Shown piece after piece: positions 1-10,539 of a DNA stretch of 10,539 bases. A program made the position numbers and the translations under genes. Every line of letters begins with the position of its first letter. Positions within the stretch are counted from its first letter, which is position 1. The notes below the pieces were generated by a model, which searched no databases, was not told where the DNA came from, and saw nothing but the letters and a program-made list of their open reading frames with translations. Origin of the DNA: a virus; IMG/VR virus record IMGVR_UViG_3300002461_000783, positions 1 to 10,539 of that record. One strand, given 5' to 3'.

Positions 1-94
1 TGCAGCCGATACCGGCCGGCGCGCTCAGAATCCGGCGCTTTTTGCGGATTTCCGCCGGCCGGCCGGTCAACCGATTTTGCGATCATACCGAGAG
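1..94. repeat. Left copy of the exact 94-bp direct terminal overlap (circular-assembly redundancy); carries the first 28 codons of rep on the minus strand (ATG at 84-86)
   Basis: Letter-for-letter identical to 10446-10539. The overlap cuts through the rep ORF, so it is not a biological terminal repeat. Confidence 0.95.
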
Positions 95-255
95 GCCGGC
101 GCACGAGCGCGCCGGCACTTCATAACCCGTTGATTTTTCGATGACTTTAGACATTCTGGCCCAGGCAGCGAAACACCACCGCGCATCGTCAACCGGCCAC
201 CGCCACCGGAGCACCGGACGCGCGGCCAGCGCCTGCAGGCGGCGTTGCTTTCGAC
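87..255 (-). promoter_or_regulatory. Non-coding region upstream of rep: candidate rep promoter, Rep-binding or origin region
   Basis: 169 bp lie between the stop of ORF 256-456 and the rep ATG (84-86). A GC hairpin at 95-102/109-116 (GCCGGCGC acgagc GCGCCGGC) sits 8 nt from the rep ATG. An A/T-rich patch spans 117-158. Four copies of (C/G)CACCG occur between 176 and 216. rep has no recognisable Shine-Dalgarno sequence. Confidence 0.35.
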
Positions 256-456
256 TCACCGCGCGGCCCTCGCCGCATCCCGCCGCGCCGCCCTGTTCGG
301 AGCCACCACAGGCCCACCAGGAAGCCGCAGGACGCGCCGCACGAACACCGGCCACCAGGCGGCACGCCCGAGCAGCACCAACGCCAGGCCGAGCCTGTAG
401 CGCCACGGCATCAGCATCGCCTGCTCGAACGCGCGCGAGAACTCAGCGGGCGTCAC
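256..456 (-). CDS. Hypothetical small protein (66 aa), one hydrophobic segment and an Arg-rich tail
   Basis: The GTG start forms a GTGA overlap with the stop of gene 453-686. A hand count of codon-position G+C over 259-405 in this frame gives 3rd 86%, 1st 78%, 2nd 66%, the coding pattern expected in a high-GC genome. The competing ORF 83-406 lacks this pattern. Hydrophobic stretch: LGLALVLLGRAAWWPVFV. Confidence 0.5.
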   Translation of the reverse strand: MTPAEFSRAFEQAMLMPWRYRLGLALVLLGRAAWWPVFVRRVLRLPGGPVVAPNRAARRDAARAAR

Positions 457-686
457 AGCGCCTGCAGCTCGCTGCAGTCAAACGCAGTCGGACCGCTGCG
501 CGGCGTGTTATCCAGCTGCACCAGGACGCCGCCGACACCATCGGCACCGCTGACAGTGCCGCGACTGTTGCCCCACTCGCCAGCCTTCACACGCACACGC
601 GAGCCGACAACAAAGCCGCCTACAGATGCAGCGGGTTTCTTCGCAGCGGATTTCTTCGTTGCAGTTTTTTTCTTCGCCTTGGTCAT
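453..686 (-). CDS. Small basic protein (77 aa): histone-H1-like Lys/Ala-rich N-terminal tail plus a short beta-rich (SH3/KOW-like) domain; candidate DNA-binding protein
   Basis: ATG at 684-686 is preceded by GAGGAG 7 nt upstream. N-terminus is MTKAKKKTATKKSAAKKPAAS, followed by VGSRVRVKAGEWGNSRGTVSG...VLVQLDN. The stop overlaps the next start (GTGA). Confidence 0.75.
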   Translation of the reverse strand: MTKAKKKTATKKSAAKKPAASVGGFVVGSRVRVKAGEWGNSRGTVSGADGVGGVLVQLDNTPRSGPTAFDCSELQAL

Positions 687-698
687 CGTTCACTCCTC

Positions 699-729
699 AA
701 AAAAAAGACCGCTGCCACGATGGCAGCGG
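699..729 (-). terminator. Rho-independent terminator after the 130-aa gene
   Basis: The minus-strand RNA forms a perfect 9-bp stem (CCGCUGCCA ucg UGGCAGCGG; 721-729 with 709-717), then UC and U8 (699-706). It lies 40 nt downstream of the stop at 769-771. The U-tract runs straight into the GAGGAG SD of gene 453-686. Confidence 0.75.
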
Positions 730-768: not shown

Positions 769-1161
769 TCATGAGACCATTTCTTCGCACACCAAACGCG
801 CGACATCCTCAGCTTTTTTTACCTTGTAGAGAAACGGCTGCAGGATGAATTTAAATTCATCGCGAAACGCGGCGCGCACCTTGTAGTTATGTTCGGTGAA
901 CGTGGCAATCTCATCCGCAAAGCAACCGGTGACACGGCGCGGAAGTTCGTAGGTGTTCTCGATCTCAATAACTTCCTTGAGCGCCTTTATGGCGTTGGCC
1001 ATGTGATCCAGATACAGCTGCAGCTGCGCGTCGATGGCATCGACCGCCACGCGCTGAATCGGCGAGATTTCATCAGGCATCACGGGGCAACCGTTGACGC
1101 GGTCGAACCGCGCATCGTAGACGCGCGGAATATTCTCTCTCGACTTAGTGGGTGCGCTCAT
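769..1161 (-). CDS. Hypothetical protein (130 aa), helical and slightly acidic; second gene of the lower-GC accessory cassette
   Basis: ATG at 1159-1161 forms an ATGA overlap with the stop of the upstream gene. The amino-acid composition is diverse, not the Arg/Ala/Pro shadow type. The DNA here is visibly more A/T-rich (hand counts of roughly 47-65% per 60 nt) than the rest of the window. The gene has its own terminator. I recognise no family. Confidence 0.8.
   Translation of the reverse strand: MSAPTKSRENIPRVYDARFDRVNGCPVMPDEISPIQRVAVDAIDAQLQLYLDHMANAIKALKEVIEIENTYELPRRVTGCFADEIATFTEHNYKVRAAFRDEFKFILQPFLYKVKKAEDVARLVCEEMVS
844..861. repeat. 18-bp perfect palindrome GATGAATTTAAATTCATC inside the 130-aa gene
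   Basis: Checked base by base: positions 844-861 equal their own reverse complement. It is AT-rich within a GC-rich genome and encodes DEFKFI. Confidence 0.95.
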
Positions 1162-1391
1162 ACCCCCCCCTTGCGCGCTTCATTACGGGCGGCCGCCTGG
1201 CGCATATCGCGGCTACGCAAAAACAAAAAGGAATCGGCCGCCCTGGCCGCAGAGTGCTTATAAAAACTAGAACCCATCCGATCAAAAGCGGCTTTGTAAG
1301 CCGTTCCCTCACCGATGGCGTCGCCGGTCCGGTCGATACGGTCGATTTCACGGGCGACCGCCCCCGCGATGCTTTCTCGATTCCTCAGCAT
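1158..1391 (-). CDS. Hypothetical small protein (77 aa); first gene of the accessory cassette
   Basis: ATG at 1389-1391 is preceded by AGAGGGGA about 8 nt upstream. The ORF-track version (to 1442) uses a TTG start inside the upstream hairpin region. The 3' end carries a G8 tract and overlaps the next ATG (ATGA). Confidence 0.65.
   Translation of the reverse strand: MLRNRESIAGAVAREIDRIDRTGDAIGEGTAYKAAFDRMGSSFYKHSAARAADSFLFLRSRDMRQAAARNEARKGGV
1163..1170. repeat. C8 (G8 on the coding strand) homopolymer at the junction of the 77-aa and 130-aa genes
   Basis: The minus strand reads AAG GGG GGG GTA TGA, with the ATG of the next gene embedded in GTATGA. Confidence 0.95.
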
Positions 1392-1538
1392 GGCATTTCC
1401 CCTCTTGCACGTTGTAAGGGACGCCCGGTGACCGGGTAGCAAGAGGGAGCAAGCGCCCCAGGCCGAACGTCAGACCCAAGGGATTGAGGCGGCGAACCGG
1501 CTATGCCCCTAGATCATGGGGCGGGAGAATAACACATT
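1392..1538. promoter_or_regulatory. Divergent control region with nested inverted repeats and a candidate leftward promoter
   Basis: A 9-bp inverted repeat CCCTCTTGC (1400-1408) / GCAAGAGGG (1439-1447) encloses the palindrome CCCGGT g ACCGGG (1424-1436). The left arm contains the SD of gene 1158-1391. The minus strand reads CATAAT at 1536-1541, a possible -10 element. Confidence 0.45.
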
Positions 1539-2114
1539 ATGCGCGGAATGGCGGTAATTCTGGCCCTGTGGCTGGCGCTGGTAGCCCTGGCGTCGCGCCG
1601 CGCCGACCCCGTGAACCCCCCCCCCGGTTTTGACTCCCAACGCGTCCTAGCGCGTTTAAACCCAAAAACAGGGGGAGTCATGGATTCAGGGGAAGTACTC
1701 GCGGCCGTCAGCGTCGCCGAGTTGATCAGCATCACCGCCGTGAACGAAACCACCGCCCGCCGCTGGAAAAGCGGCCGGGCGCAGATCCCGACCGCTGCCG
1801 CCCGCCTGGTTGCGCTGTACACAGTCGGCGACCTGGCCAGCCTGGCCGGACCCGATTGGGACGGCTGGACCATCACCAGGGACGGCCGGCTGCAGTCGCC
1901 GCGCTGGCGGCGAGCCTTCACCCGCTGGGAAATCGAGGAATTGCCGAACCTGCACGGCCAGCGCGCCGCGTTCGACGTTGAACGCCGGCAGCTGCAGCGG
2001 GACATGCGCCAAGCGCATGACGAACTCGACGCCCAAAAAAAACGCGCGGCTTTTTACCGCGCGCAGCTTGTGACGGAAGCGAGGATCGGCCTAGCGTTCC
2101 TCGCGCCGCGTTGA
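1539..2114 (+). CDS. HTH regulator, DUF3653-like phage protein (191 aa as sequenced; 144-aa core if started at ATG 1680)
   Basis: AELISITAVNETTARRWKSGRAQIPTAAARLVALYTVGDL...WDGWTITRDGRLQSP matches my recollection of DUF3653 (HTH plus a W-x-G-W motif). The first 29 codons (MRGMAVILALWLALVALA...) have coding-like GC3 (25/29 by hand). The next 18 codons (1626-1679) do not (8/18). They carry TTGACT, an operator-like palindrome and AGGGGGAG (1670-1677) ahead of an internal ATG at 1680. This is the only plus-strand gene. Confidence 0.65.
   Translation: MRGMAVILALWLALVALASRRADPVNPPPGFDSQRVLARLNPKTGGVMDSGEVLAAVSVAELISITAVNETTARRWKSGRAQIPTAAARLVALYTVGDLASLAGPDWDGWTITRDGRLQSPRWRRAFTRWEIEELPNLHGQRAAFDVERRQLQRDMRQAHDELDAQKKRAAFYRAQLVTEARIGLAFLAPR
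1616..1625. repeat. C10 homopolymer linking the hydrophobic leader to the regulator ORF, 4 nt upstream of TTGACT
   Basis: Counted directly: aaC CCC CCC CCC gg. It is the longest homopolymer in the window. Confidence 0.95.
1630..1660 (+). promoter_or_regulatory. Candidate promoter/operator for the ATG-1680 form of the regulator
   Basis: TTGACT lies at 1630-1635 and TTTAAA at 1655-1660, with a suboptimal 19-nt spacer. The spacer holds the inverted repeat AACGCG tcctag CGCGTT (1639-1656). Confidence 0.3.
2035..2063 (-). terminator. Rho-independent terminator of the long minus-strand (late) operon
   Basis: The minus-strand RNA forms a perfect 7-bp stem (CGCGCGG uaaaaag CCGCGCG; 2057-2063 with 2043-2049) followed by U8 (2035-2042). 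It lies 28 nt downstream of the last minus-strand stop (2091-2093), inside the 3' coding region of the plus-strand gene. Confidence 0.7.
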
Positions 2115-2273
2115 CAGCGAGGCCGGCGCGCCGATTTCATCGAGCCGGCGATGCGCGCGGTCAATGTCGGCGCGCAGCCAATCCAGCTTCGTCGAGACAA
2201 CGCCCCATGTCACGGCGCCATTGACTAGCGCCGTGATCCCCGCCGGGGCGATTGCTTCGGTCAGCGTGAACAT
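2091..2273 (-). CDS. Small membrane protein (60 aa), one TM and a charged C-terminus; last gene of the operon
   Basis: ATG at 2271-2273 shares its A with the TGA of the upstream ORF (TGATG). TM segment is AIAPAGITALVNGAVTWGVV, followed by DWLRADIDRAHRRLDEIG. The ORF-track form (TTG at 2414) would overlap the better 59-aa ORF. Confidence 0.55.
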   Translation of the reverse strand: MFTLTEAIAPAGITALVNGAVTWGVVSTKLDWLRADIDRAHRRLDEIGAPASLSTRREER

Positions 2274-2452
2274 CAGTTCGAGCCTTTTTCCTTGAGCACG
2301 ATGCCTAGCAGCAGCGACGCGACGGACGCGGCGACGGTGGCGACTTCGGGCACGCCGACCGCAGCCAGGCCCGGCACACCGAAGATGCCGCCGAGCGCGC
2401 CCAGGGCAGCCCAAGTCGAGGGTTCACCAAAACGGGAAATTGCAGTCTTCAT
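2273..2452 (-). CDS. Small membrane protein (59 aa, two Gly/Ala-rich hydrophobic segments); absent from the ORF track
   Basis: My translation: MKTAISRFGEPSTWAALGALGGIFGVPGLAAVGVPEVATVAASVASLLLGIVLKEKGSN. ATG at 2450-2452 forms an ATGA overlap with the stop of gene 2449-2772. Its stop forms a TGATG overlap with the next start. Confidence 0.6.
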   Translation of the reverse strand: MKTAISRFGEPSTWAALGALGGIFGVPGLAAVGVPEVATVAASVASLLLGIVLKEKGSN

Positions 2453-2772
2453 CGAAAAAGTCCTTTCAGGAAGTCAGCCGCCGAACAGGAAAACGAAGCA
2501 TCCCAGGTGCGACCGGCGGCAAGGTCAGCCTGGCATTGAGTCTGGTTGGTGCGCGGAATGCCGACAATCTCGCCAGCAGTCTGCACCGACTCGGAAACGA
2601 AGCCCCCGGCAAAATCCACTGCGGCACCGCCGGCAGCCGAGCCGATGCCGCGCGCGTTTCGCGCCAGGATAGGCAGCGCGATCACAAGCACCAGGCCGAG
2701 ACCGAGGCCGACCAGCACCGCGCGCGATTGCGAGCAAGTCAGCAGCGGCATCTTGACGGCGCACTCAGACAT
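2449..2772 (-). CDS. Membrane protein (107 aa), N-terminal TM and a Cys-containing C-terminal domain
   Basis: ATG at 2770-2772 is preceded by AAGGAAG and overlaps the upstream stop (ATGTCTGA). TM segment is AVLVGLGLGLVLVIALPIL. The ORF-track N-terminal extension (to 2928) overlaps gene 2765-2965 and is Arg-rich. Confidence 0.6.
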   Translation of the reverse strand: MSECAVKMPLLTCSQSRAVLVGLGLGLVLVIALPILARNARGIGSAAGGAAVDFAGGFVSESVQTAGEIVGIPRTNQTQCQADLAAGRTWDASFSCSAADFLKGLFR

Positions 2773-2965
2773 AGACTTCCTTGACGCCGTCTTGCCGGGT
2801 GCGCGCCCAGCCATCGAGCACCGGATCGTAAACAAAGCCAGGCGGCGCGCTGTTGGCATACCGAAAATAACCCTGCAGCGTCGATTCCGATCGCCGCGAC
2901 CACTTGACCAGGAAGTAAGCCAGCGCACCAGCGCCGACCATAATCACCACATCATCGAGCTTCAT
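2765..2965 (-). CDS. Small membrane protein (66 aa), N-terminal TM; holin-like position directly after the lysozyme
   Basis: ATG at 2963-2965 forms an ATGA overlap with the lysozyme stop. TM segment is VVIMVGAGALAYFLV. Confidence 0.65.
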   Translation of the reverse strand: MKLDDVVIMVGAGALAYFLVKWSRRSESTLQGYFRYANSAPPGFVYDPVLDGWARTRQDGVKEVYV

Positions 2966-3675
2966 GCATACCCCCCGCCGGTTGAACTGAACAGCGCGAC
3001 TTCAGACGCGCGCCGATTGACCAGGCCTTGCACCACCTGGCCGCCCGCTCGGCGCCACAGCGGCAGCTGAGCAGCAGCGCCGGCATAGTCGCCGGCATTC
3101 AACAGCCGCAGCAGCGTCGAGCGGCGGAACGCGCCCACCCCGACGTTATAAACGAACGACACCAGCGCATCGAATTGCGGCTGTGTCAATGGCACCTTGA
3201 CCAGGCTATTGACAGCATCTTCGGCGATGCCGACATCCTGCGCGAGAAGGGAAGAAGCCTGCGCCTCAGTGATGCTATCCCACCACTCGCCAGGCTTCAG
3301 CAGATGGCCATAACCAATGGTCCACAGCCCGGCGGAATCCTTGTAAGGGTTGAGCTTCAGCCCTTCCCACTGCTTCAGGTGAGCCAGACCAGCAAGAGAC
3401 AGCACCATGCGACCCCCCCACACACCGGAAAAAAAGTTTTCAGCGCGATACACCACCGGCAGCAGCGCATCCCCCACGGCATCGAGCGCACCCACTTCGT
3501 ATTCATCCGGCGATGCCCAGGCACCGCCACCATCAGCACCGCGCGTCCAGTCGAACTGGTAGGCCGGATGATCGGCAGGCACCCCGCCCTGCTCCGCGCG
3601 CGACCGCAGCGCGAAGTAAAGCCCGACGCCAGCGCCGACGATCACCACAGCGGCCGCTGCAGCGCGCGCGCTCAC
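2962..3675 (-). CDS. Membrane-anchored GH24 (T4/lambda-type) lysozyme, 237 aa
   Basis: LKQWEGLKLNPYKDSAGLWTIGYGH carries the canonical E-x8-D-x5-T triad (E104, D113, T119; the E104 codon is at 3364-3366). The N-terminal TM is AAAAAVVIVGAGVGLYFAL, followed by a ~65-aa linker before the catalytic domain. The GTG start forms a GTGA overlap with the upstream stop. Confidence 0.9.
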   Translation of the reverse strand: MSARAAAAAVVIVGAGVGLYFALRSRAEQGGVPADHPAYQFDWTRGADGGGAWASPDEYEVGALDAVGDALLPVVYRAENFFSGVWGGRMVLSLAGLAHLKQWEGLKLNPYKDSAGLWTIGYGHLLKPGEWWDSITEAQASSLLAQDVGIAEDAVNSLVKVPLTQPQFDALVSFVYNVGVGAFRRSTLLRLLNAGDYAGAAAQLPLWRRAGGQVVQGLVNRRASEVALFSSTGGGYA

Positions 3676-4145
3676 TTCGGCAGTTCCGACTTGACAGAGA
3701 CGCGCACCGCCTGCAGGGCATCAGCCGCATTAGACCGCCCTTCAATCGCGTATTCCCACAGCGCCACCACCAGGGCATCGACGGTCGCGCCGCGTTCAGC
3801 GTATTTAAGCGCGCGCAGTTGATCAACGGTCATTGCAGCCAGGCGCGCAGCTGCAGCCGCCGTATCAGCAGCAGCCACACGCGACGCGCGCGCAGCGAGC
3901 AGCTGGCCGACGTTGCCGATCACACCATCGAGCGCGGCCAGCGCCGCCGCATTCAGGCCGCTCGCGCGCTGATTGCCCGCCGCGTCGATGACACAATTCA
4001 TTAGACCAGGCGCATACACCAGGCCGGCAGCACCAGGCGCAGCCTGGCCGGCATCGAGCGCGAAATTCTGCGGCGTGTCGATGTAGACGCCGGCAGCGCC
4101 CTCGACAATGACCAAGCCATCATGGGATAGCTGGACGCGGTTCAT
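3672..4145 (-). CDS. Hypothetical Ala-rich protein (157 aa) coupled to the collar protein; possible spike stalk or assembly partner
   Basis: ATGA overlap at 4142-4145. It has a beta-like N-terminal half and an Ala-rich helical C-terminal half. I recognise no family. Confidence 0.7.
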   Translation of the reverse strand: MNRVQLSHDGLVIVEGAAGVYIDTPQNFALDAGQAAPGAAGLVYAPGLMNCVIDAAGNQRASGLNAAALAALDGVIGNVGQLLAARASRVAAADTAAAAARLAAMTVDQLRALKYAERGATVDALVVALWEYAIEGRSNAADALQAVRVSVKSELPK

Positions 4146-4621
4146 CGTTCGGCCTTGATGATGTAAAAGGCAACCGCGAACGGCTGCATGTTGTTATGCG
4201 CGGTGCCGCTGCCACCGTTGCCGGTTGTAGCGGAACCACCTTTGCCAGCAGCACCCACTGGACCATAGGTTGCGCCGCTATCTACGATGAACAAAGACGC
4301 GCTTCCTGGCGGGTGAGTGTGCACGCCGTTTTCACCGTCGGTCAGCGGATGGGTTTCAGCGCCACCCGTGCCGCCACGGCTGCGCGCCGTCAGCCCCGAT
4401 CCAGAGCCAGCGCCGAGCAGCGCGCGCCCGCGACAGTCGGGCAAGTTGAACGTGGTCGAGCCGTCCCCCGCGCCGTAAGCGGTGCCGACTTCGGCAAAAA
4501 GAGCGGCATACACGGTGCGCGACACCGCAGCGCCGTTGCAGTCGAGCCAGCCAGGCGGGACAGCAGCACCGCCCCATGCCTTGATGGAGCCGACGCGCTC
4601 AGATGCCGGAGCAAAAAACAT
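4142..4621 (-). CDS. Phage Tail Collar domain protein (MdpB/COG4675-like), 159 aa; candidate receptor-binding spike subunit
   Basis: GWLDCNGAAVSRTVYAALFAEVGTAYGAGDGSTTFNLPDCRGRALLGAG ... GVHTH ... HNNMQPFAVAFYIIKA is the classic Collar-domain signature (PF07484). ATG at 4619-4621 shares one nt with the upstream TGA. Confidence 0.88.
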   Translation of the reverse strand: MFFAPASERVGSIKAWGGAAVPPGWLDCNGAAVSRTVYAALFAEVGTAYGAGDGSTTFNLPDCRGRALLGAGSGSGLTARSRGGTGGAETHPLTDGENGVHTHPPGSASLFIVDSGATYGPVGAAGKGGSATTGNGGSGTAHNNMQPFAVAFYIIKAER

Positions 4622-5190: not shown

Positions 5191-5673
5191 TCAACCCCTA
5201 AAAGACTTCACGGCCACGATGGCAACCGCAGCGATCACGCCATAGGCCACCAGGCGCTTTGCATCGCCCTCACCCTTTGCGTTGTCGTATGCCGTGGCGA
5301 CGATGGCGCCCGACGCCTTTACGATATCGGCATTTTTGTCGAGCACCTGGAAGGACTTGTCGAACACACGATCAACCAGGCCGAGCAGCTGCTGCGCGCT
5401 CTGGCCCTGCAGGGCATCGCCGGCCTTCAGCAGATCAATGCCGGCGCGCGCGAACTCGAAGGACTGAGTAATCGCGCCGTTGTCCAGCGCGGTGACGTTG
5501 ACCGTCGAACTGTCCGAACTAATGCCGATGCCCTGGTCAACGACCAGGCGCTTGTCGATATTCTGAGTCGTGGTCTCATTGGAAGAACTAGACCCGCCGC
5601 CGCCGCCGTTACACGGCGCCCGCTTCGATCCTGGCTGAACACCCCAGCCGCAGCCGATGGGCTCCATCATCAC
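5191..5673 (-). CDS. Membrane-anchored protein (160 aa), C-terminal TM and a Gly/Ser-rich N-terminal region
   Basis: The GTG/ATG/ATG start cluster at 5665-5673 overlaps the upstream TGA. The C-terminal TM is LVAYGVIAAVAIVAV. Confidence 0.7.
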   Translation of the reverse strand: MMMEPIGCGWGVQPGSKRAPCNGGGGGSSSSNETTTQNIDKRLVVDQGIGISSDSSTVNVTALDNGAITQSFEFARAGIDLLKAGDALQGQSAQQLLGLVDRVFDKSFQVLDKNADIVKASGAIVATAYDNAKGEGDAKRLVAYGVIAAVAIVAVKSFRG

Positions 5674-6134
5674 GCAGCCACCTTGCCGAGGACCACACCG
5701 CGCGGCGAGTAGCCCAGGCGCGCGAACGCCTGGACAACAGACCGGCGCGCCGACATGACTCGAAACGAAGACACACCTCTAAACTGGCGCTCAAGCGCGG
5801 CGATCAACGCAGGAAAGCGGCTTCGAGCGAACGGCAACCGGCCCGCAGCCGCGTCGATCACCCCTTCAGCGCCCAGCTCGCGCACCTCGACGCGCAACAC
5901 TACACAGCCCAGCACTTCGCCATCATGGTCGATCACGTCGAACAGCACGGACCGTCCAGACGCAACGTCACAGCGCAGGCTTTCAGCGGTCATCATCGGA
6001 TCGGCGACCAGGGCGCGCGCCAGCCGCTCAGCGTGCGACGGCAGCCAGGCAGAGGGGCGCAGCGTCAGGCTTTTTTCTTGATCCACACGATCCCCGCGAG
6101 AGTGAGAGCAACGACACCGGTAGCCAGCAGCCAC
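5670..6134 (-). CDS. Hypothetical protein with GNAT-like (acetyltransferase-fold) sequence topology; start uncertain
   Basis: The ORF-track start is GTG at 6134, which gives a 70-nt overlap with the upstream gene. Alternatives are GTG at 6084-6086 (GGGGA 4 nt upstream) and ATG at 5994-5996. The pattern LTLRP...(helix)...VIDHDGEVLGCVVLRVE...GVIDAAAG...ALIAALERQF..FRVMS..SVVQAFARLGYSPRG resembles the GNAT beta1-alpha-beta2-4-alpha3-beta5-alpha4-beta6 order. The glycine-rich CoA loop is not evident. Confidence 0.55.
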   Translation of the reverse strand: MAAGYRCRCSHSRGDRVDQEKSLTLRPSAWLPSHAERLARALVADPMMTAESLRCDVASGRSVLFDVIDHDGEVLGCVVLRVEVRELGAEGVIDAAAGRLPFARSRFPALIAALERQFRGVSSFRVMSARRSVVQAFARLGYSPRGVVLGKVAA

Positions 6135-6385
6135 GAAGGCACGCCGGCGGTTTTTGACGACGTCGCATTGCCCGGCCCAAAGTCAACGACGAAGCCGGAA
6201 TTGTCAAACGTGATTGTGTTTGCCGAATCGACGCGAGACGGCCCCGCAGAACTTGGGGCCAGCGCCTTCGACAAGATCGGCGACGCGGCAGAGAACCAGG
6301 CCAAAGCCGGATTGCCGGCGGCAGCGGCCCCTACGATACGACCAGGCCCATCCGTGCCCGCCACGCCATCAGCCCAATCAGACAT
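6065..6385 (-). CDS. Tail-anchored small membrane protein (106 aa)
   Basis: ATG at 6383-6385. The C-terminal TM is WLLATGVVALTLAGIVWI, followed by KKKA. Confidence 0.7.
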   Translation of the reverse strand: MSDWADGVAGTDGPGRIVGAAAAGNPALAWFSAASPILSKALAPSSAGPSRVDSANTITFDNSGFVVDFGPGNATSSKTAGVPSWLLATGVVALTLAGIVWIKKKA

Positions 6386-6395
6386 GGCGAGCCGT

Positions 6396-6680
6396 TCACT
6401 TCAGGGCAAGGTAGGCGACACCGCCGACAACCAGCACCCCGGCGACCAGCAACAGCGGCGAGATACCGCCAATCATCGCGCCAGGCTGTCCCCTGGTGTA
6501 AAGGCCACCGTTGGCACCCATGCCCAACTGGCGAGCCACGTCATTCACCTGATAGGCCTGCAGGGTTTCCGAATCGACGTATCGACCGAAGCCATAAGAC
6601 ACCAGCTGCTGCCACCACTCTTCACCGGCGACCAGGCCGGGCGGCGGCGTGACCGTCACCGGGTTTCCGTAGTGCTGCAT
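6396..6680 (-). CDS. Tail-anchored small membrane protein (94 aa; 95 aa if started at GTG 6683)
   Basis: ATG at 6678-6680 lies 5 nt after GGGGG. The C-terminal TM is ISPLLLVAGVLVVGGVAYLAL. Confidence 0.7.
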   Translation of the reverse strand: MQHYGNPVTVTPPPGLVAGEEWWQQLVSYGFGRYVDSETLQAYQVNDVARQLGMGANGGLYTRGQPGAMIGGISPLLLVAGVLVVGGVAYLALK

Positions 6681-6689
6681 CACAGCCCC

Positions 6690-7496
6690 CTAGTTGTTAA
6701 CGAGCGGATCCAGCAGCTCCATCACCACCGTCACATTGCCAGCACCGCTTACAGTGACATACCACTCATGAGTGTTGGCGTTTGCGGCATTGTGGACATT
6801 GCTGAGATTGCCGTCCTCGATGAAGTCGATGCATACGCAGTTGGCTTGCGGGGTGCGCTGATACTCGCCGAGCACGAAGTCATTCAGCGCATCATTGCGG
6901 TTCCAGACCTCGATGCCGTTTTTCTTCACGCGCGCGGCAGTGACCGTCGAGCCAAAAAAGTGCGCGCGCTTGATGAACGACCCAGCCTGTTTGCCGAACG
7001 GAATGTCCACGGGGAATTCGCCAGCGGCGCCGAAGTTCTGCGTGTAGCTAAGCACCTTGGCGATCAGGCCGCTGTAGCTAGGATCATTCTGCGGCGCAGC
7101 CGACACCTGGGCGATAGCCGACAGCGTCGGCGAAGTCGCGCCGCCGATATCAATCTCGACATTCAGATCACGAATGCCGCTGCTGACGGTATCCAGGCAG
7201 CCGACCTTTTGACCCTGAATCGTTCGGGCGCGGATTTCCGCAAAGTCGAGCACCAGGTAAGCAGCGGCGGCAGTGATGCCACGGTGCTGCATACGAGTGT
7301 CGATGCGGGAGCCGGTGTCTTCGACAATGGTCTTGCCGTTCGCCTGCACCTTCACGTTGGTAATTTGCGCCTTGGTGAACGTGCCACCCAAGGTGTAAAT
7401 CACGCGGTCTATGGTGTAGCCGAGCAGGTTGTTCCATTTGCCGCTGGCTTTGCTGTTCGCGGCGACGCCGGCCAGCGGATTGACAACGATATCCAT
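6690..7496 (-). CDS. Major capsid protein, corticovirus P2-like (predicted double jelly-roll), 268 aa
   Basis: The protein is beta-rich with no TM. Its size is essentially that of PM2 P2 (~269 aa). It lies between the packaging ATPase block and the small membrane proteins. Local strings (PTLSAIAQ, ITNVKVQANGK, CIDFIEDGN) resemble my unverified recollection of PM2 P2. SD AAGGGA lies upstream of ATG 7494-7496. Confidence 0.8.
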   Translation of the reverse strand: MDIVVNPLAGVAANSKASGKWNNLLGYTIDRVIYTLGGTFTKAQITNVKVQANGKTIVEDTGSRIDTRMQHRGITAAAAYLVLDFAEIRARTIQGQKVGCLDTVSSGIRDLNVEIDIGGATSPTLSAIAQVSAAPQNDPSYSGLIAKVLSYTQNFGAAGEFPVDIPFGKQAGSFIKRAHFFGSTVTAARVKKNGIEVWNRNDALNDFVLGEYQRTPQANCVCIDFIEDGNLSNVHNAANANTHEWYVTVSGAGNVTVVMELLDPLVNN

Positions 7497-7523: not shown

Positions 7524-7646
7524 TTACAGCGATTCGGACAGCAGCGGAACCTGGGTTTTTTTCAGCATCGGGCGCACGACCAGGTTGGTCAGCACCATGA
7601 AGCCGACGAAGGTGGCGTAGGCCACAGCGAGTTTTTTCACGTCCAT
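7524..7646 (-). CDS. Small membrane protein (40 aa); absent from the ORF track
   Basis: My translation: MDVKKLAVAYATFVGFMVLTNLVVRPMLKKTQVPLLSESL. ATG at 7644-7646 is preceded by GGAGA about 8 nt upstream, and the stop is TAA at 7524-7526. It sits directly upstream of the capsid gene. Confidence 0.6.
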   Translation of the reverse strand: MDVKKLAVAYATFVGFMVLTNLVVRPMLKKTQVPLLSESL

Positions 7647-7738: not shown

Positions 7739-8386
7739 TCAGGAAATTGCCCGCGTCAGGTCTTTGAGCGAAACGCCTTCGGCCGTCAGATCACCTGTAA
7801 CAAGGTTCTTGACCAGCCACTGACGCGGCCGCAGCTGCCGCAGCAGATTAATGTTCACGTCGATGGCATCGGCCACCGCTTTTTTATCGCCAGCACTCGA
7901 CAGTTTGCCGACGCGGATCATGGTGCAGTTTGAAAAAAACGTCTTATCGAGCAACGCCGGCCGCTGCGACGTGCCGACCACCATCAGCCCGTAATGACGT
8001 CCACCGGTGACCACTTCAAGCCAGCCAGGCGGCGAGTATCCGGCCTTTGTCACTAAGGCCAATTCCTCGATGACCAGCATCACATCGCGCACCGCCAGCG
8101 CCGCGCGGCAGAACACGGCGAACTGTTCACGCATCCGCAGCTCCGTGGACTTGTCCGGCTGGTAGACCAGGGCGAAGCGACCGCGCCCGACCTTGCGCAG
8201 CTCCGCCACCAGGTCAGCCGTGCGGCCCTTGATGACCTTGCCGACGTGGCCATATTCGCGCATCGCATCCCACACCATCAGGCGCGGCGGTTTCGTGGCC
8301 AGCACCTGTTTGACGAAGTGAGATTTACCCGAACCGGTCGAGCCGATCACCGCGACGAACGCGGCCTGGTTGTCTGAACCTTTCAC
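7739..8386 (-). CDS. Genome-packaging ATPase, FtsK/HerA-superfamily P9-like (215 aa)
   Basis: Walker A is GSTGSGKS (8321-8344). A Walker B-like VMLVIEE is present, followed downstream by GGRHYGLMVVGTSQRP. The small size and the position next to the capsid gene match the ATPases of membrane-containing tailless phages. The GTG start forms a GTGA overlap. Confidence 0.85.
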   Translation of the reverse strand: MKGSDNQAAFVAVIGSTGSGKSHFVKQVLATKPPRLMVWDAMREYGHVGKVIKGRTADLVAELRKVGRGRFALVYQPDKSTELRMREQFAVFCRAALAVRDVMLVIEELALVTKAGYSPPGWLEVVTGGRHYGLMVVGTSQRPALLDKTFFSNCTMIRVGKLSSAGDKKAVADAIDVNINLLRQLRPRQWLVKNLVTGDLTAEGVSLKDLTRAIS

Positions 8387-8853
8387 GGCACCGGCTTTGG
8401 TGTCGGCGCGCCAGGCGGCGGCTGGTGGCCTTGATGCGTAGAGTGCCGCAGCACCTCGACGGTATCGAATCCCAGCATGGCCAGGGCACCGATGGCGACC
8501 AGGTATTGCATCGCCACGCTATTGGTCGCGTTGATACCCCAGCGGTCAAGCACCGGCGCGACGGCCTCACCGACCATCGCGCAGCGATGCTCCGTGTAAA
8601 CACGCTTCACCGCCGGGTATCGCATCGCCATCAAGTTTCCAGACCCGAGCAGCACACCAGCGACCAAGCGAGCGGTCGAAATCGAATGCTCGCCGGCCCC
8701 GGCCCGGTCATCACCAGGCGGCTGCGCGCCGCCGGCTGGTGGCGGGTCTTCGCCGCCGTTGTCTACGCGCGCCGCTTCGGCCGCCAGCTGGTCCAGATCG
8801 GGATTGCCGGCGGTTTCGCCCTCGCCTGGCTGCGCCTGTTCCGCTTCGTTCAT
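8383..8853 (-). CDS. Hypothetical protein (156 aa): acidic, Pro/Gly-rich N-terminus and two hydrophobic segments; coupled to the ATPase
   Basis: ATGA overlap at 8850-8853 with the upstream gene and GTGA overlap with the ATPase start. Hydrophobic stretches are ARLVAGVLLGSGNLMAM and MQYLVAIGALAMLGF. Confidence 0.7.
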   Translation of the reverse strand: MNEAEQAQPGEGETAGNPDLDQLAAEAARVDNGGEDPPPAGGAQPPGDDRAGAGEHSISTARLVAGVLLGSGNLMAMRYPAVKRVYTEHRCAMVGEAVAPVLDRWGINATNSVAMQYLVAIGALAMLGFDTVEVLRHSTHQGHQPPPGAPTPKPVP

Positions 8854-9170
8854 CGACCACCCCCGAGAACGTCGAGCGCATCAGAGAACATGCCGCGCTT
8901 TTTCTCCGGTTTTTTTTCCGGTTTCGGTTCCGCCGGTTTTTCGGCGACCGGCGCGGCCGGTGCCGGATCGACGGCAGCCGGCGCGCTGGCCGGCAGCGAT
9001 GACCGGATGCCGCGATCACCGCGACCGGAGAGCGTACGGAACATCGACGTGCAGCAATCAAAAATGATGTAGGCGCGGCCGTTCGATCCCTGGCGCGCTT
9101 CCGCTTCACCGACCGCACCGCAGGCCGGACACTTCGCCGAACTTTGCCCGAGGACTTTTTTATCGGCCAT
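8850..9170 (-). CDS. Zinc-ribbon-like small protein (106 aa) with a Pro/Lys/Glu repeat tail; candidate transcription factor
   Basis: ATG at 9168-9170 is preceded by GAAGGGG. The sequence has CPAC ... (about 22 aa) ... CC, then APAAPVAEKPAEPKPEKKPEKK. Confidence 0.72.
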   Translation of the reverse strand: MADKKVLGQSSAKCPACGAVGEAEARQGSNGRAYIIFDCCTSMFRTLSGRGDRGIRSSLPASAPAAVDPAPAAPVAEKPAEPKPEKKPEKKRGMFSDALDVLGGGR

Positions 9171-9339
9171 CGTTCACCCCTTCCAGTTTTTCGATGCGCT
9201 GGATCAGCTCATCGATGATCGTTACCGCATCGGCCAGCGCAGCGCGCGCATCATGCGGCACAAAACCCACCGCCAGCGGATTGGCCAGAAGCCGCGCCGT
9301 CGCAGTTTTCAAGTTCTTCATACGTTCGTTCGTCGTCAT
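9160..9339 (-). CDS. Small helical protein (59 aa), overlapping the rep 3' end; internal part of ORF-track entry 9160-9564
   Basis: ATG at 9337-9339 is preceded by AAGGG about 9 nt upstream. Product: MTTNERMKNLKTATARLLANPLAVGFVPHDARAALADAVTIIDELIQRIEKLEGVNDGR. Over the 9251-9339 overlap, hand-counted GC3 is 19/29 in this frame against 13/29 in the rep frame. Upstream of 9339 this frame is Arg/Cys-rich junk. Confidence 0.55.
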   Translation of the reverse strand: MTTNERMKNLKTATARLLANPLAVGFVPHDARAALADAVTIIDELIQRIEKLEGVNDGR

Positions 9340-10531
9340 CAGGCGGCCCTTTGTCTGGTGGGCGTTCCTGTTCCATCTGCCGCAGCGCGAGCAGAACGCC
9401 CTGCACCCCCGCCGCGCCTTCACGTTCAGCCCACAGCAGCACCTGATACCGCGCGCGATGGCGCAGCACCAATGCCCAATCGTCTTTGGTAAGCGTGGCG
9501 ACGGTTTCGAACTCCGGCGCGTTCGCCTGCTGTTCCAGGATTTCATCGTCTGCCGCTTCGTCATCGAGGCCCAGACGCGCGCGCAGCCCTGGCGACCATG
9601 TCAGCTGCCGGCGACCTTTAAAGGCCCAGTAGAATTCCCGGAACAGCTGCGCGGCTTGCTGGTCACCTTTTCCCACCGCCACCAGCAGCGTGAACGGCGT
9701 CGAGCCGCGCATGGAATGGGAAACCTTGCTCTGCCCCTTCACCATTTCCCGCGCTGCGCCCCAGGTAGCGCCGGCATCAAGCTTCGCCTTGAATGACGGT
9801 TCATGCCCGAACTTGGCGACATACTCCGCAGCGAAATCACCGCCGCGCACATCGAAGGAATGCGCGTTGATATCGTTCAGCTGGTCCGCGCCGGCCGCGC
9901 CGGTTTTCAGCAGCGCCGACACCCAGGCCGCGCGCAGCTGTTCGAACAGCGGCAGCTGGTCCGGCTGGGCAAAAATCAGAATGTGAAAGTGAGGATGCCA
10001 GCCATGCCAGCTGCCCCAGGTGCATTCCAGGGCGCGAATCGTGCCGATGGCGCCGGCCGCCGTCATCACCGAGCGCCACGCCTTCGACTGCTTCAGCCGC
10101 TGCGACGTGGCCGCTGCCACCTTCAGCAGACCGGACAAATTGTCCGCCCTCACATGCGGCAGCGTCAGCGTCATCAGGTAGACCGCCCCGCCCTGCTTCG
10201 CCCAGGCTTCGATTGCCCGCTGCAGATCGTGGCGGCGTTCCTCCGTGATGATGCCGCTGCAGATCGGGCAGGCCCAGACGTTCGAACAGCTTTCCAGCCC
10301 GCCGAATACCGCTTTGTTCCTGGCATGATCGACGCGCACCTGCACCGTGCCGACCGTTCGCCATCGATGGCAGGTGCAGACCCGTTCTTGCTTTTTGCCG
10401 ACCTCGCCCCTGGCCGGTTCAAACATCAGGTTGGACGCGACCCGCTGCAGCCGATACCGGCCGGCGCGCTCAGAATCCGGCGCTTTTTGCGGATTTCCGC
10501 CGGCCGGCCGGTCAACCGATTTTGCGATCAT
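9251..10531 (-). CDS. rep: Rolling-circle replication initiator, HUH superfamily (Rep_1/pC194-phage type), 426 aa
   Basis: Motif I is YLMTLTLP. Motif II is WHPHFHILIF (H181-F-H183 at 9983-9991). Motif III is AAEYVAKF (Y237 at 9821-9823, Y-x-x-K). An N-terminal Cys cluster reads VCTCH...SCSNVWACPIC. ATG is at 10529-10531. The last ~30 codons have low GC3 and overlap the 59-aa ORF. Confidence 0.92.
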   Translation of the reverse strand: MIAKSVDRPAGGNPQKAPDSERAGRYRLQRVASNLMFEPARGEVGKKQERVCTCHRWRTVGTVQVRVDHARNKAVFGGLESCSNVWACPICSGIITEERRHDLQRAIEAWAKQGGAVYLMTLTLPHVRADNLSGLLKVAAATSQRLKQSKAWRSVMTAAGAIGTIRALECTWGSWHGWHPHFHILIFAQPDQLPLFEQLRAAWVSALLKTGAAGADQLNDINAHSFDVRGGDFAAEYVAKFGHEPSFKAKLDAGATWGAAREMVKGQSKVSHSMRGSTPFTLLVAVGKGDQQAAQLFREFYWAFKGRRQLTWSPGLRARLGLDDEAADDEILEQQANAPEFETVATLTKDDWALVLRHRARYQVLLWAEREGAAGVQGVLLALRQMEQERPPDKGPPDDDERTYEELENCDGAASGQSAGGGFCAA

Positions 10532-10539
10532 ACCGAGAG
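10446..10539. repeat. Right copy of the exact 94-bp direct terminal overlap
   Basis: Identical to 1-94. Confidence 0.95.

Follow-up and report, generated by a model that had tools for sequence, protein, structure and literature searches.

Organization of the genome

The window analysed here is the whole stretch of 10,539 nucleotides of the viral record IMGVR_UViG_3300002461_000783, and its features are collected in Table 1. The first and last 94 bp of the window are identical, and the original prediction had taken them as a head-to-tail overlap that closes a 10,445-bp circle. This was borne out both by the exactness of the overlap and by an independent ENA assembly (L005) of the same run (SRR2905841, an activated-carbon metagenome), a contig of 10,454 bp that matches the unit in reverse complement, starts at another point of the circle and is unbroken across the window's 10445/1 junction. 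Leaving out the 7-nt end redundancy of L005 itself, the two differ by substitutions at 1600 and 1606 and by two extra C in L005 in the poly-C run at 1616-1625, and by nothing else. The start codon and first 28 codons of rep lie inside the duplicated 94 bp and, therefore, the repeat represents assembly redundancy, as had been read from the overlap cutting through this gene.

Nearly all genes lie on the minus strand, a gene for a XafT-like protein being the only confident plus-strand gene. The G+C content of the unit is 62.96% overall (55-69% across 500-bp windows), that is, high as foreseen but slightly lower than the two-thirds that had been estimated. Neither integrase nor tRNA genes were found in the window by family profile searches and a tRNA search, respectively. 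Likewise, family searches gave no matches to portal, terminase or tail proteins, in keeping with what had been claimed, the PHROG "tail" matches being confined to the Collar domain. A crude Kyte-Doolittle scan detected TM-like hydrophobic stretches in nine ORFs, in line with the proposal of at least eight small single-TM proteins. As regards its dsDNA or ssDNA type and its virions, the element is known here from assembled sequence alone.

Table 1. Features of the window, with positions counted from its first nucleotide
Position	Strand	Feature	Basis
1..94	.	Terminal assembly redundancy; closes circle; holds rep start codon	Identical to 10446-10539
74..103	-	Invariant 30-mer CTCTCGGTATGATCGCAAAATCGGTTGACC spanning rep start codon	Alignment of relatives
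256..456	-	Small conserved ORF upstream of rep, 66 aa	GC3 0.87; alignment of relatives
453..686	-	Early gene, 77 aa, Lys/Ala-rich histone-H1-like N-terminus	Translation; gene called in L005
707..731	-	Strong terminator-like hairpin within early operon, 11-bp stem then T8	Hairpin scan
769..1161	-	Early gene, 130 aa	Translation; L005 gene call
1158..1391	-	First early gene, 77 aa	L005 gene call; tblastn matches in relatives
1520..1547	-	dif-like attP	XerC arm TCCGCGCATAA, centre TGTGTT, degenerate "XerD arm" ATTCTCCCGCC
1539..1652	+	Remnant ORF; hydrophobic tail = C-terminus of relatives' repressor	Comparison with relatives; hydropathy
1680..2114	+	P15/XafT-like Xer recombination activation factor, 144 aa	NCBIfam NF040522; PM2 gp a similarity
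2042..2064	-	Terminator-like hairpin, end of long late operon	Hairpin scan
2091..2965	-	Four small genes downstream of lysozyme (60, 59, 107, 66 aa)	L005 gene calls
2962..3675	-	GH24 (T4-type) lysozyme, 237 aa, N-terminal hydrophobic anchor	Pfam; PHROG; hydropathy
3672..4145	-	157-aa protein in vertex/spike block	Translation; gene call
4142..4621	-	Tail-Collar-domain protein, 159 aa	Pfam PF07484 at 3.5e-23
4621..5187	-	188-aa beta-rich protein, candidate penton/spike base	Position only (PM2 spike P1 slot)
5191..6680	-	Four small structural/membrane genes (159, 138, 106, 94 aa)	Gene calls; hydropathy
6690..7496	-	Major capsid protein, 268 aa, PM2 P2-type double jelly-roll (DJR)	Pfam; PDB sequence; AF2; Foldseek
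7524..7646	-	40-aa single-TM protein at position of PM2 P7 (34 aa)	Position; hydropathy scan
7739..8386	-	Genome-packaging ATPase, 215 aa, PM2 P9 homologue (FtsK/HerA superfamily)	BLASTP; tblastn; PHROG
8383..8853	-	156-aa protein at PM2 ORF h position	Collinearity with PM2
8850..9170	-	106-aa protein, CPACG...CC cysteine motif, at PM2 P13/P14 position	Position and sequence only
9251..10531	-	Rep, 426 aa, Rep_1-family HUH rolling-circle initiator	Pfam PF01446; PHROG 11698; motifs

Structural and packaging proteins

The capsid protein matched the Pfam domains P2_N (2.6e-24) and P2_C (1.3e-40) and, among PDB sequences, 9t9v_A (7.8e-13) and PM2 P2 (3.6e-5). When its AF2 model (pLDDT 92.2) was submitted to Foldseek, the best PDB match was PM2 P2 itself (2vvf_A, E 4.2e-25, TM 0.86, rmsd 2.2 A), followed by the DJR proteins of PBCV-1, STIV and PRD1, and the best 50 BFVD matches listed were DJR capsid proteins almost throughout. 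The double jelly-roll fold anticipated for this protein was thus recovered by profile and by model. Such modelling and profile matching had been named in advance as a possible refutation of the PM2-type reading, which it left standing. The packaging ATPase, with a GSTGSGKS Walker A motif, is 31% identical to PM2 P9 (E 6e-26, BLASTP), which places the small FtsK/HerA-like ATPase of the original prediction in the P9 type. In tblastn, identity was 37% with NO16 and 31% with PM2, and profile matches were to PHROG 2666 (6.8e-30) and, weakly, to AAA_22, DUF87 and FtsK.

Around these two genes, the 40-aa gene next to the capsid gene is kept in all relatives compared. The 156-aa protein displays no sequence similarity to PM2, and the protein with the CPACG...CC motif, presumed to be a late-transcription factor, gave no significant match to Pfam, PHROG or NCBIfam profiles. 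Within the block of four small genes, TM segments are found in the 159-aa (C-terminal), 106-aa and 94-aa products, and the 106-aa one is weakly similar to PM2 P3 (BLASTP E 0.003). The AF2 model of the candidate penton or spike base (pLDDT 62) is confident only over the N-terminal ~80 residues, and Foldseek returned nothing significant for it, with PM2 P1 at E 0.027 and TM 0.30. The 157-aa protein had no family match in Pfam or PHROG. The Tail-Collar protein, whose presence had been correctly noted, is presumed to be the receptor-binding part of the vertex spike; close relatives carry in its place unrelated proteins of 246-278 aa.

Replication, early and lysis genes

Rep matched Pfam Rep_1 (4.4e-13, 49.7 bits, cutoff 33.2) and PHROG 11698 (1.4e-68). 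Its N-terminal part bears a cysteine cluster (CxCH...CPxC), and motif I (MTLTLPH), the HUH motif (WHPHFH) and the Tyr motif (AEYVAKF) are all present. When the protein was aligned with Reps of relatives and of Inoviridae, these three motifs showed no variation. Consequently, the proposal of an HUH endonuclease stood, but not that of a PM2 P12-like one: no similarity to P12 was found, and this Rep_1 protein is of a kind otherwise found in filamentous phages, its nearest phage relatives being Inoviridae.

This kinship bears on an alternative, namely that the element is a FLiP/PhiCjT23-like (Finnlakeviridae-type) virus, with a DJR capsid and a rolling-circle Rep, that packages single-stranded circles. 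Besides the affinity of Rep to ssDNA phages, such a reading could invoke the location of almost all genes on one strand and the fact that dif motifs likewise lie on either side of ssDNA DJR prophages of the PhiCjT23 type (PMC9719478). However, the capsid protein carries PM2-P2 Pfam domains and has PM2 P2 as its best structure, no FLiP or PhiCjT23 chain occurs among the best 50 PDB matches of its model, a clear PM2-P9/NO16-type ATPase gene lies near the capsid gene, and the entire structural block, this ATPase included, is collinear with that of the dsDNA phage PM2. FLiP and PhiCjT23 are not known to carry a P9-type packaging ATPase gene. Rolling-circle replication, moreover, is also used by PM2 (PMC1950889), and a FLiP-like nature was considered very unlikely.

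The 30-mer CTCTCGGTATGATCGCAAAATCGGTTGACC is invariant at 29 of its 30 positions in five relatives that average ~60% column identity there, its upstream edge is sharp, and homology to an unrelated context (L025) begins exactly at this sequence. From this conservation, we infer that it is a candidate replication origin (nick region) or a regulatory site. No conserved hairpin was found in the region, nor could an origin be identified through the pC194-type nick sequence CTTGATA, which is absent from the window. Among the early genes, the 66-aa ORF coincides with a gene called in L002, the 130-aa product has same-position homologues of 118-129 aa in relatives, and the H1-like protein had no family match in Pfam or PHROG.

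The predicted GH24 lysozyme was also confirmed (PF00959 at 2.3e-49; PHROG 7, endolysin, at 1.7e-65), and its N-terminus contains a TM-like segment. Two of the four small proteins encoded downstream have TM segments in the hydropathy scan and, from their position, the four are presumed to be lysis accessory or membrane proteins. Lysis would thus involve a membrane-anchored lysozyme assisted by small membrane proteins.

The attP site and the relatives integrated at dif

In the window, [CT]ATAATGT has a single match, which is at attP. The XerC arm and the centre of this site bound the integrated relatives and match the dif of those relatives' hosts, and the synteny break between the window and one of them (L001) falls at attP. 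In L001 and L014, a hybrid site marks one end and the canonical dif (A/G)TTCGTATAATGTGTATTATGTCAAAT the opposite one, L011 is bounded in the same way with a different dif variant, and host tatD adjoins L001, L009 and L011; L012 and L013 are circles carrying attP.

Searched against NCBIfam, the XafT-like protein, whose gene lies beside attP, scored 45.9 bits (4.9e-12) with NF040522 (VC1465/XafT family), short of the curated cutoff of 70; with this model, the orthologues in five relatives gave E-values between 1e-6 and 2e-10, and PM2 gp a gave 1.9e-7. Similarity to PM2 gp a was also seen by BLASTP (28% identity, 2.5e-4). This gene had been described as a DUF3653 regulator that PM2 lacks. The supposed lack in PM2 had to be abandoned, the protein being a XafT-family homologue of PM2 gp a/P15. 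Pfam DUF3653 itself had no match in the window at E <= 0.1, whereas its NCBIfam equivalent, the XafT/VC1465 model, had one.

Since close relatives are integrated at host dif without an integrase, the lineage is temperate and appears to exploit host XerCD. By analogy with TLC-phi, which together with dif-type DJR prophages provides the model (PMC6744903, PMC12715192, PMC10589892, PMC9966536), host XerC/XerD, activated by the XafT-like factor, would integrate attP at dif. The relatives lie at the chromosomal dif of their hosts, where a functional dif has been restored on one flank.

Absence of the repressor

In 11 of 11 relatives examined (L001, L003, L009, L011, L012, L013, L014, L018, L019, L020/L022 and L021), a homologue of an HTH repressor spans attP, and tblastn found none in the window. 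Here, the attP core runs straight into the early promoter's -10 box (TATTCT, 1526-1531), which the degenerate arm ATTCTCCCGCC overlaps, and the -35 box seen in the intact L011 promoter (TTGACA-N18-TATTCT) is lost. The remnant ORF holds the poly-C run over whose length the two assemblies disagree. Because the repressor is absent and attP is fused to the -10 box, the circle is most likely a derepressed deletion derivative unable to maintain lysogeny, which would have replicated in the sample as a free circle, be it lytic or episomal. Given that the early promoter is without its -35 box, high early expression is not assured.

The repressor-less junction was not seen in other metagenome or viral collections that were searched and was found only in the two assemblies of one sequencing run. 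A chimeric assembly could conceivably have produced this junction or the closed circle: several related strains coexist in the sample (L022, L023 and L025, same LNFM01 project), the contig end coincides with the sequence shared with L025, suggesting a graph branch point, and the assemblies disagree near the homopolymer run. Nevertheless, both assemblies, although differently broken, agree on the circle and on the attP-promoter junction. The sides of this junction have only ~3 nt in common, which is not enough for a k-mer jump, and gene order is fully syntenic with that of relatives from other samples, save for the repressor and one ~60-aa early gene. An artefact is, on balance, extremely improbable.

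It could also be argued that the circle only reflects how a tandem prophage (IMEX) array at dif was assembled, as IMEXs are often in tandem, their head-to-tail junction looks the same as attP, and L011 carries a further IMEX-like block next to its prophage, or that it is a defective plasmid-like remnant that forms no virions. The missing repressor and -35 box, and the finding of the element in one sample only, would agree with such a view. However, set beside those of relatives, the structural, packaging, replication and lysis ORFs are without exception intact and of full length, neither assembly contains host flanks, while relatives elsewhere were assembled with theirs, and a prophage without repressor is expected to be unstable. 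These explanations were judged unlikely, and a free circle of the deletion derivative is preferred.

Placement and host

These observations can be integrated by assuming that the window represents, with high probability, a whole phage genome, circular and 10,445 bp in size, and that this phage is an uncultured, tailless member of the order Vinavirales (PM2 lineage) with an internal membrane. The original assignment to Corticoviridae held as far as the PM2-type circular genome is concerned, but not in the strict sense of the family, because the two hallmark proteins are only 26-37% identical to those of cultured members, hence the placement at the level of the order. In this phage, the packaging ATPase would pump DNA into a shell of the P2-type protein, the small membrane proteins would line an internal lipid vesicle, the vertices would carry a spike ending in the Tail-Collar receptor-binding protein, and replication would proceed by rolling circle.

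Integration was seen only for relatives, with 72-87% capsid identity to the element; these lie on Burkholderiales-like contigs, and the thiolase flanking L001 clusters at at least 90% identity with a protein from a "Burkholderiales bacterium" MAG, the sole named flank match. To judge from these flanks and from the lysozyme type, the element probably infects Burkholderiales bacteria of a water-treatment carbon filter. Betaproteobacterial Vinavirales typically carry a T4-type lysozyme, the prophage clade D being mainly betaproteobacterial with endolysins of this type, and Rep_1 replicases have already been published within the order (PMC9502842), as has the high-GC phage Jorvik (62.4% GC, from Rhodobacter; PMC10589892). 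The argument from rarity, based on few cultured members, marine gammaproteobacterial hosts and high GC, is therefore outdated and the claim of novelty was overstated: the element belongs, as could be expected, to a lineage that had already been catalogued from prophage sequences. Its most unusual trait, and a new detail when set against all relatives examined, is the loss of the repressor.

A circular genome and its genes

The first 94 bases of the window are repeated exactly as its last 94, leaving a unit of 10,445 bp with a G+C content of 62.96% (55%-69% across 500-bp windows). Because the rep ORF begins within the duplicated segment, the repeat corresponds to assembly redundancy, as the original prediction had proposed. 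The sample of origin, an activated-carbon metagenome (run SRR2905841, PRJNA301005), was traced through the exact sequence of the capsid protein, as was a second, independent ENA contig from that run (L005, 10,454 bp). This contig matches the reverse complement of the unit, with its break about 5.1 kb from that of the window, and it runs without interruption across the window's 10445/1 junction. Leaving aside its own 7-nt end redundancy, it differs from the unit only by substitutions at 1600 and 1606 and by two extra C in the poly-C tract 1616-1625. The 94-bp overlap and the rotated independent contig support, at the assembly level, a circular genome of about 10 kb; a tandem prophage array may also be the source of such a circular contig. 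No capsid homologue was found in the plasmid collection; nothing points to a catalogued plasmid. The length of the poly-C tract decides whether a short remnant ORF is in frame with the XafT-like gene (191 aa) or ends after 37 aa, and the discrepancy between the two assemblies could reflect a sequencing error or real heterogeneity.

At this composition, GC3 frame statistics by themselves were not enough to tell genuine ORFs from spurious ones, and the gene calls therefore rely on L005 and on synteny with relatives. They amount to about 24 genes, all on the minus strand except one on the plus strand, which has the remnant ORF just upstream on the same strand. A sigma-70 consensus scan found no promoter. 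The strong hairpin within the early operon, upstream of rep, may serve as a site of attenuation or antitermination through which rep expression is controlled. At the 5' end of the following gene, three tandem degenerate repeats of 15-18 nt (TGCAGCGGGTTTCTTCGC-like; window 627-677) encode the Lys/Ala-rich, histone-H1-like N-terminus of its product. The window also lacks, at 1158-1161, an early gene of about 60-64 aa that in relatives separates the first early gene from the third (L001, 5776-5970; L009, 5747-5929; L012, 927-1121; L013, 9355-9537), a second small difference in gene content besides the repressor discussed below.

Features of the window, with a Burkholderiales dif sequence
Feature	Position	Strand	Remarks
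Invariant 30-nt stretch	74-103	-	Spans rep start codon
Early ORF, 66 aa	256-456	-
Lys/Ala-rich early protein, 77 aa	453-686	-
Strong terminator-like hairpin	707-731	-	11-bp stem, T8; between 130-aa gene and Lys-rich 77-aa gene
Early gene, 130 aa	769-1161	-
Early gene, 77 aa	1158-1391	-
dif-like site (attP)	1520-1547	-	Single site
Repressor remnant ORF	1539-1652	+	Hydrophobic tail only
Divergent XafT-like gene, 144 aa	1680-2114	+
Terminator-like hairpin	2042-2064	-	End of lysis block
Four small proteins in lysis block		-	After lysozyme in transcription order
GH24 lysozyme	2962-3675	-
157-aa protein		-	After Tail-Collar gene in transcription order
Tail-Collar protein, 159 aa	4142-4621	-
188-aa protein		-	After the four small structural/vertex-block proteins, before Tail-Collar gene
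Four small proteins, mostly TM		-	After capsid gene in transcription order
Capsid protein, 268 aa	6690-7496	-
40-aa TM protein		-	Between ATPase and capsid gene
Packaging ATPase, 215 aa	7739-8386	-
106-aa Cys-motif protein, then 156-aa protein		-	Between Rep and ATPase in transcription order
Rep, 426 aa	9251-10531	-
Burkholderiales dif			GTTCGTATAATGTGTATTATGTCAAAT

Capsid, packaging and virion

The capsid protein matches both Pfam domains of PM2 P2 (P2_N, 2.6e-24; P2_C, 1.3e-40) and, by sequence, solved double jelly-roll (DJR) proteins, the best PDB sequence match being 9t9v_A (7.8e-13), with PM2 P2 at 3.6e-5. Its AlphaFold2 model, based on 50 homologues (mean pLDDT 92.2, pTM 0.89), had PM2 P2 (2vvf_A) as the best PDB match in Foldseek (E 4.2e-25, TM 0.86, rmsd 2.2 A), followed by the DJR capsid proteins of PBCV-1, STIV and PRD1, and the best 50 matches in BFVD were nearly all DJR capsid proteins. 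The major capsid protein is a PM2-P2-type double jelly-roll: it clearly shows both the P2 profile match and the DJR model whose joint absence was to count against the original prediction. Just upstream of its gene lies that of a P9-type FtsK/HerA ATPase, 31% identical to PM2 P9 (E 6e-26); among cultured phages compared by tblastn, NO16 was the closest (37%), followed by PM2 and Cr39582 (31%). The identification of the element as PM2-type and corticovirus-like was right, given the P2 Pfam domains, the DJR model and the P9-type ATPase.

Pfam, PHROG and NCBIfam scans revealed no portal, terminase or tail protein, and all PHROG 'tail' matches came from the Collar domain of the 159-aa protein. A TM-like segment was detected in nine ORFs by a crude hydropathy scan; together with the ATPase, these suggest a virion with an internal lipid membrane and a dsDNA genome. 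The 188-aa protein, with only 11 homologues, an AlphaFold2 pLDDT of 62 and no significant Foldseek match, is from its position a putative penton or spike protein. Vertex or receptor-binding genes are swapped among close relatives (window 3672-5187 versus L011:12342-13840, L012:7562-8505 and L014:7877-8925), the Tail-Collar protein of the window, L001 and L013 being replaced by unrelated proteins of 246-278 aa in L011, L012 and L014. This swapping recalls the way in which PM2 and Cr39582 diverge in their spikes.

The Rep protein and a candidate origin

The Rep scored 49.7 bits against Pfam Rep_1 (PF01446; gathering score 33.2) and matched PHROG 11698 end to end (1.4e-68). It is not similar to PM2 P12; the phages with the closest Reps are all filamentous Inoviridae, namely blackswan219-6 (36%), Pseudomonas PMBT54 (31%) and Propionibacterium B5 (26%). 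In an alignment with the Reps of the window's relatives and of Inoviridae, motif I (TxT..H), the HUH motif (WHPHxH) and the Tyr motif (Y237..K240) were invariant. By its profile match and motifs I, II and III, the protein is a Rep_1 (pC194/pUB110-type) HUH rolling-circle initiator. Residues ~55-125 hold a cysteine cluster (CTCH ... SCSNVWACPICS) common to the relatives' Reps, largely kept in that of the inovirus PMBT54 (CPxC present, CxCH in part) and absent from the shorter Rep of blackswan219-6; this N-terminal cluster is likely a zinc-binding, DNA-recognition domain.

The pC194/phiX-type nick sequence CTTGATA does not occur on either strand of the window. The rep start codon is spanned by a 30-nt stretch, CTCTCGGTATGATCGCAAAATCGGTTGACC, of which 29 positions are invariant in five relatives while the flanks diverge. 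For the window, DNA folding near it yielded a z-score of -2.6, and no hairpin or other structure common to the relatives was found in the region; the stretch is proposed only as a candidate origin. Homology with the otherwise unrelated L025 (L025:4276-4530), a 4.5-kb contig of about 50% GC, begins exactly at this 30-mer, upstream of which all of L025 is unrelated and carries genes for a Doc/Fic-like toxin and XRE-type HTH proteins. The end of the window's contig falls there as well. The 30-mer could be either a module boundary at a rolling-circle origin or a branch point of the assembly graph.

Integration of relatives at host dif sites

The capsid protein has 272 homologues at E <= 1e-5, mostly on contigs of 10-12 kb and a few on long ones. 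L001, with 75% capsid identity, lies on a 362-kb NCBI contig, and L009 (87%) and L011 (72%) share its setting: all three elements directly follow the same host genes, tmk-holB-tatD and then a gene for a 215-aa protein. No flanking tRNA was found at these three loci, and no recombinase match was obtained for any ORF of the window (Pfam, PHROG, NCBIfam) or in the relatives' gene tables. The synteny break between the window and L001 falls at window 1476-1664. At its right end L001 carries a canonical dif (ATTCGTATAATGTGTATTATGTCAAAT) and at its left end a hybrid site, with XerC arm and centre as in dif and a degenerate XerD arm. The same pair bounds L014. In L011 the pattern recurs with another dif variant, and L009 agrees with it at its left boundary. 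For relatives, though not for this exact genome, these boundaries show integration at host dif, between a dif and a hybrid site. The corresponding attP is carried by L012 and L013, which are closed circles (overlaps of 53 and 30 bp), and the window has exactly one dif-like site, TCCGCGCATAA-TGTGTT-ATTCTCCCGCC.

The divergent gene next to this site had been read as a DUF3653 regulator. No Pfam DUF3653 match was found for the ORF 1539-2114, and it was the 144-aa form that matched NCBIfam NF040522 ('VC1465 family Xer recombination activation factor', XafT of TLC-phi) at 4.9e-12 and 45.9 bits, below the curated cutoff of 70. The same profile matched the orthologues in five relatives (1e-6 to 2e-10) and PM2 gp a (P15; 1.9e-7), to which the 144-aa protein is 28% identical (E 2.5e-4). 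By activating XerD, XafT enables an attP whose XerD arm is poor to recombine with dif (PMC6744903). A module made of P16/RstR, P15/XafT and a dif-like attP is known in dif-type DJR prophages of Vibrio (PMC12715192), and the use of XerCD has been proposed for NO16 and Jorvik (PMC9966536, PMC10589892). By analogy, the window's lineage fits this XerCD-exploiting scheme and would depend on Xer.

Variants of this arrangement were seen among the relatives. L011 has an extra block between an outer attL-like site and the repressor (L011:2745-4655), holding a bona fide XafT-family protein (110 bits, above the cutoff) besides the 145-aa XafT-like gene at the other end, which suggests a tandem or recombinant integrative element exploiting XerCD (IMEX). 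In L003, which is also integrated and more remote from the window (capsid identity 59%), the lysis genes are followed by a ParE toxin cassette among other cargo (L003:14480-15560). A dif-like site of reversed orientation lies just upstream of host ftsK; the 144-aa XafT-like gene is not evident.

The missing repressor

All relatives examined (n=11: L001, L003, L009, L011, L012, L013, L014, L018, L019, L020/L022 and L021) encode an HTH repressor of about 125-160 aa with a conserved AAERAKRPEVKKAWQRAA segment and a hydrophobic tail. Its gene lies between attP and the early promoter, and in L001, L012, L013, L014, L020/L022 and L021 the attP is inside the repressor 3' coding region, where it encodes '...GITHYTN...'. 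No homologue was found in the window by tblastn, the best hit (E 0.004) being a 23-residue alignment in an unrelated region; what remains is an ORF for the hydrophobic tail. The XerC arm and central region of the window's site directly abut TATTCTCCCGCCCCATGATCTAGGGGC, a sequence that in L011 forms the -10 box and 5' leader of an intact early promoter (TTGACA-N18-TATTCT). This repressor-less junction is present in both assemblies of SRR2905841, and its exact sequence had no match in the metagenome and IMG/VR collections.

The junction points to a deletion with an endpoint at or beside the Xer crossover region. Such a deletion would leave a phage with attP and the XafT-like gene still in place but without the means to repress itself, a loss paralleled by Jorvik2, the virulent variant of Jorvik, whose virulence arose by mutation of an HTH regulator (PMC10589892). 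The event might have been an aberrant Xer-type recombination in which the phage-proximal dif (attR or attP) paired with a secondary site located in the early promoter; excision of this kind would leave the repressor behind and fuse the attP crossover region to the promoter -10 box. This origin of the junction is attractive and speculative. That the circle as a whole is a natural virulent derivative, produced by aberrant Xer recombination, of a temperate, XerCD-exploiting Burkholderiales phage of the Vinavirales is a reading that we put forward as rather improbable.

Host

A thiolase flanking L001 belongs to the same cluster, at 90% or more, as a protein named 'MAG: ... [Burkholderiales bacterium]', and the window has a T4-type lysozyme, as reported for betaproteobacterial Vinavirales (PMC9502842). 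The host of this exact genome is probably betaproteobacterial. A scan of the genome collection with the single capsid protein found no integrated copies; a 50-sequence capsid alignment was too diverse to seed such a scan, and a 12-sequence alignment returned only one contig of 4.9 kb, L007 (JALHPZ010000065.1), which encodes a GH24 lysozyme and has a capsid gene of 57% identity. L007 is binned to a Gemmataceae (Planctomycetota) MAG and was rejected as evidence for that host, since it is probably a mis-binned phage contig. As the genome-collection scans gave no host, the assignment is based on the contigs found by exact protein and on one named flanking protein.

Comparison with known systems and placement

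Like the window, PM2 has a circular genome of about 10 kb, with a map that runs P12 Rep, P13, P14, ORF h, P9 (218 aa), P7 (34 aa), P2 (269 aa), P3/P4/P8, ORF j, P1 spike, P5, P6 and lysis ORFs. The window's genes come in that order and encode proteins of comparable size: Rep, small regulators, an ORF-h-sized gene, the ATPase (215 aa), a TM protein of about 35-40 aa, the capsid protein (268 aa, same fold, TM 0.86), membrane proteins, spike and lysis. Both have a divergently transcribed P15/XafT-like gene, and rolling-circle replication is given for both, for the window as predicted from its Rep. However, pairwise similarity was found in three proteins only (P2, 26%; P9, 31%; gp a, 28%), that of P3 being marginal. 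The window differs in its 426-aa Rep_1 protein (634-aa P12 in PM2), in a GH24 lysozyme instead of P5, in separate small spike proteins, one with a Tail-Collar domain, instead of P1, in its G+C content of 63%, in a probably betaproteobacterial host from fresh or engineered water, and in lacking a P16-type repressor. Membership of Corticoviridae sensu stricto (genus Corticovirus, PM2/Cr39582) was rejected, the Rep being unlike P12 and only P2, P9 and gp a detectably similar.

FLiP and PhiCjT23, ssDNA DJR phages of Bacteroidota, share with the window a small circular genome, a DJR capsid, an HUH-type Rep and an internal membrane (predicted in the window), and PhiCjT23 has dif-flanked prophages. 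Neither is known to have a packaging ATPase gene. The window, in contrast, has a P9-type ATPase and a capsid protein of PM2-P2 type detectable by sequence and closest to PM2 P2, and a Finnlakeviridae-like ssDNA DJR phage was set aside on these grounds.

With a P2-type DJR capsid, a P9-type ATPase, a circle of about 10 kb and no tail, portal or terminase, the window belongs in Vinavirales; it is best placed there rather than in strict Corticoviridae because its hallmark proteins are only 26-37% identical to those of cultured members. Rep_1-family replicases have been reported in this order, replicases are often displaced and endolysins track the host (PMC9502842). It comprises five clades, of which clade D is mainly betaproteobacterial and 'without any known phages' (Yutin et al. 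2022, PMC9502842). The window shares with clade D the predicted host class and a T4-lysozyme-type endolysin, and core genes homologous to P2, P9, P7, ORF h, P14, P15 and P16 (PMC9502842) count as a further likeness; these likenesses are drawn from the clade's description. Clade D was described from prophages only, whereas the window is a closed, free-looking circle without a P16-type repressor. Corticoviral prophages are widespread in aquatic bacteria (PMC1950889), and the authors of Jorvik counted 849 P9+P2 prophages in Alpha-, Beta- and Gammaproteobacteria (PMC10589892).

The dif-type DJR prophages of Vibrio and NO16 ('Asemoviridae'; PMC12715192, PMC9966536) resemble the window in having no integrase, a dif-like attP and a P15/XafT homologue as terminal gene, in the window a putative one. 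They carry a repressor at the other prophage end, as do the window's relatives, while the window does not; it shows the IMEX features of a dif-like attP and no integrase, and lacks a P16/RstR-type repressor as its other terminal gene. NO16 is its closest cultured relative by ATPase (37%), with 27% identity in the capsid protein; the Vibrio prophages and NO16 differ from the window in host class, G+C, replicase and endolysin. Jorvik, a cultured phage of Rhodobacter, is also a high-GC (62.4%) circular member of Vinavirales, about 9 kb long and from a non-marine proteobacterium, without an integrase, with dif-like attP and attB and with proposed XerCD integration (PMC10589892). However, its replicase is a 212-aa RepL-like protein and its endolysin an M15 peptidase, its integration site is in a RuBisCO operon whereas the window's relatives lie at chromosomal dif, and it was not among the tblastn matches of the window's capsid protein or ATPase. 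TLC-phi, an IMEX and satellite of Vibrio cholerae (PMC6744903), shares with the window an HUH rolling-circle endonuclease and an attP with a degenerate XerD arm, and its Xer activator XafT has a putative counterpart there; its repressor is matched in the window's relatives, and its integration rebuilds a functional dif (PMC6744903). In contrast to the window, it is a filamentous-phage satellite without capsid genes, and the window's XafT-like protein is a distant one, below the family cutoff.

The capsid, packaging, replication and integration parts of the window all come from published families, and current understanding is not overturned. The window provides a complete, well-annotatable reference genome for the poorly sampled betaproteobacterial Vinavirales, in a drinking-water or activated-carbon biofilm setting. 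It would extend the dif/XerCD and P15/XafT lysogeny module, lately known from Vibrio DJR prophages, to high-GC Burkholderiales-associated relatives, where the mechanism is predicted. Here a PM2-type virion goes together with two modules that are elsewhere typical of filamentous phages, namely the Rep_1 replicase and a putative XafT/dif module, which adds to what is known of modules shared by filamentous and double-jelly-roll phages. If the improbable origin by aberrant Xer recombination were true, the circle would be the first free, actively replicating member of a betaproteobacterial clade so far known only as prophages, as well as an example of host Xer recombination making lytic escape variants. 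The variant without a repressor offers a concrete candidate route by which such prophages may go lytic.
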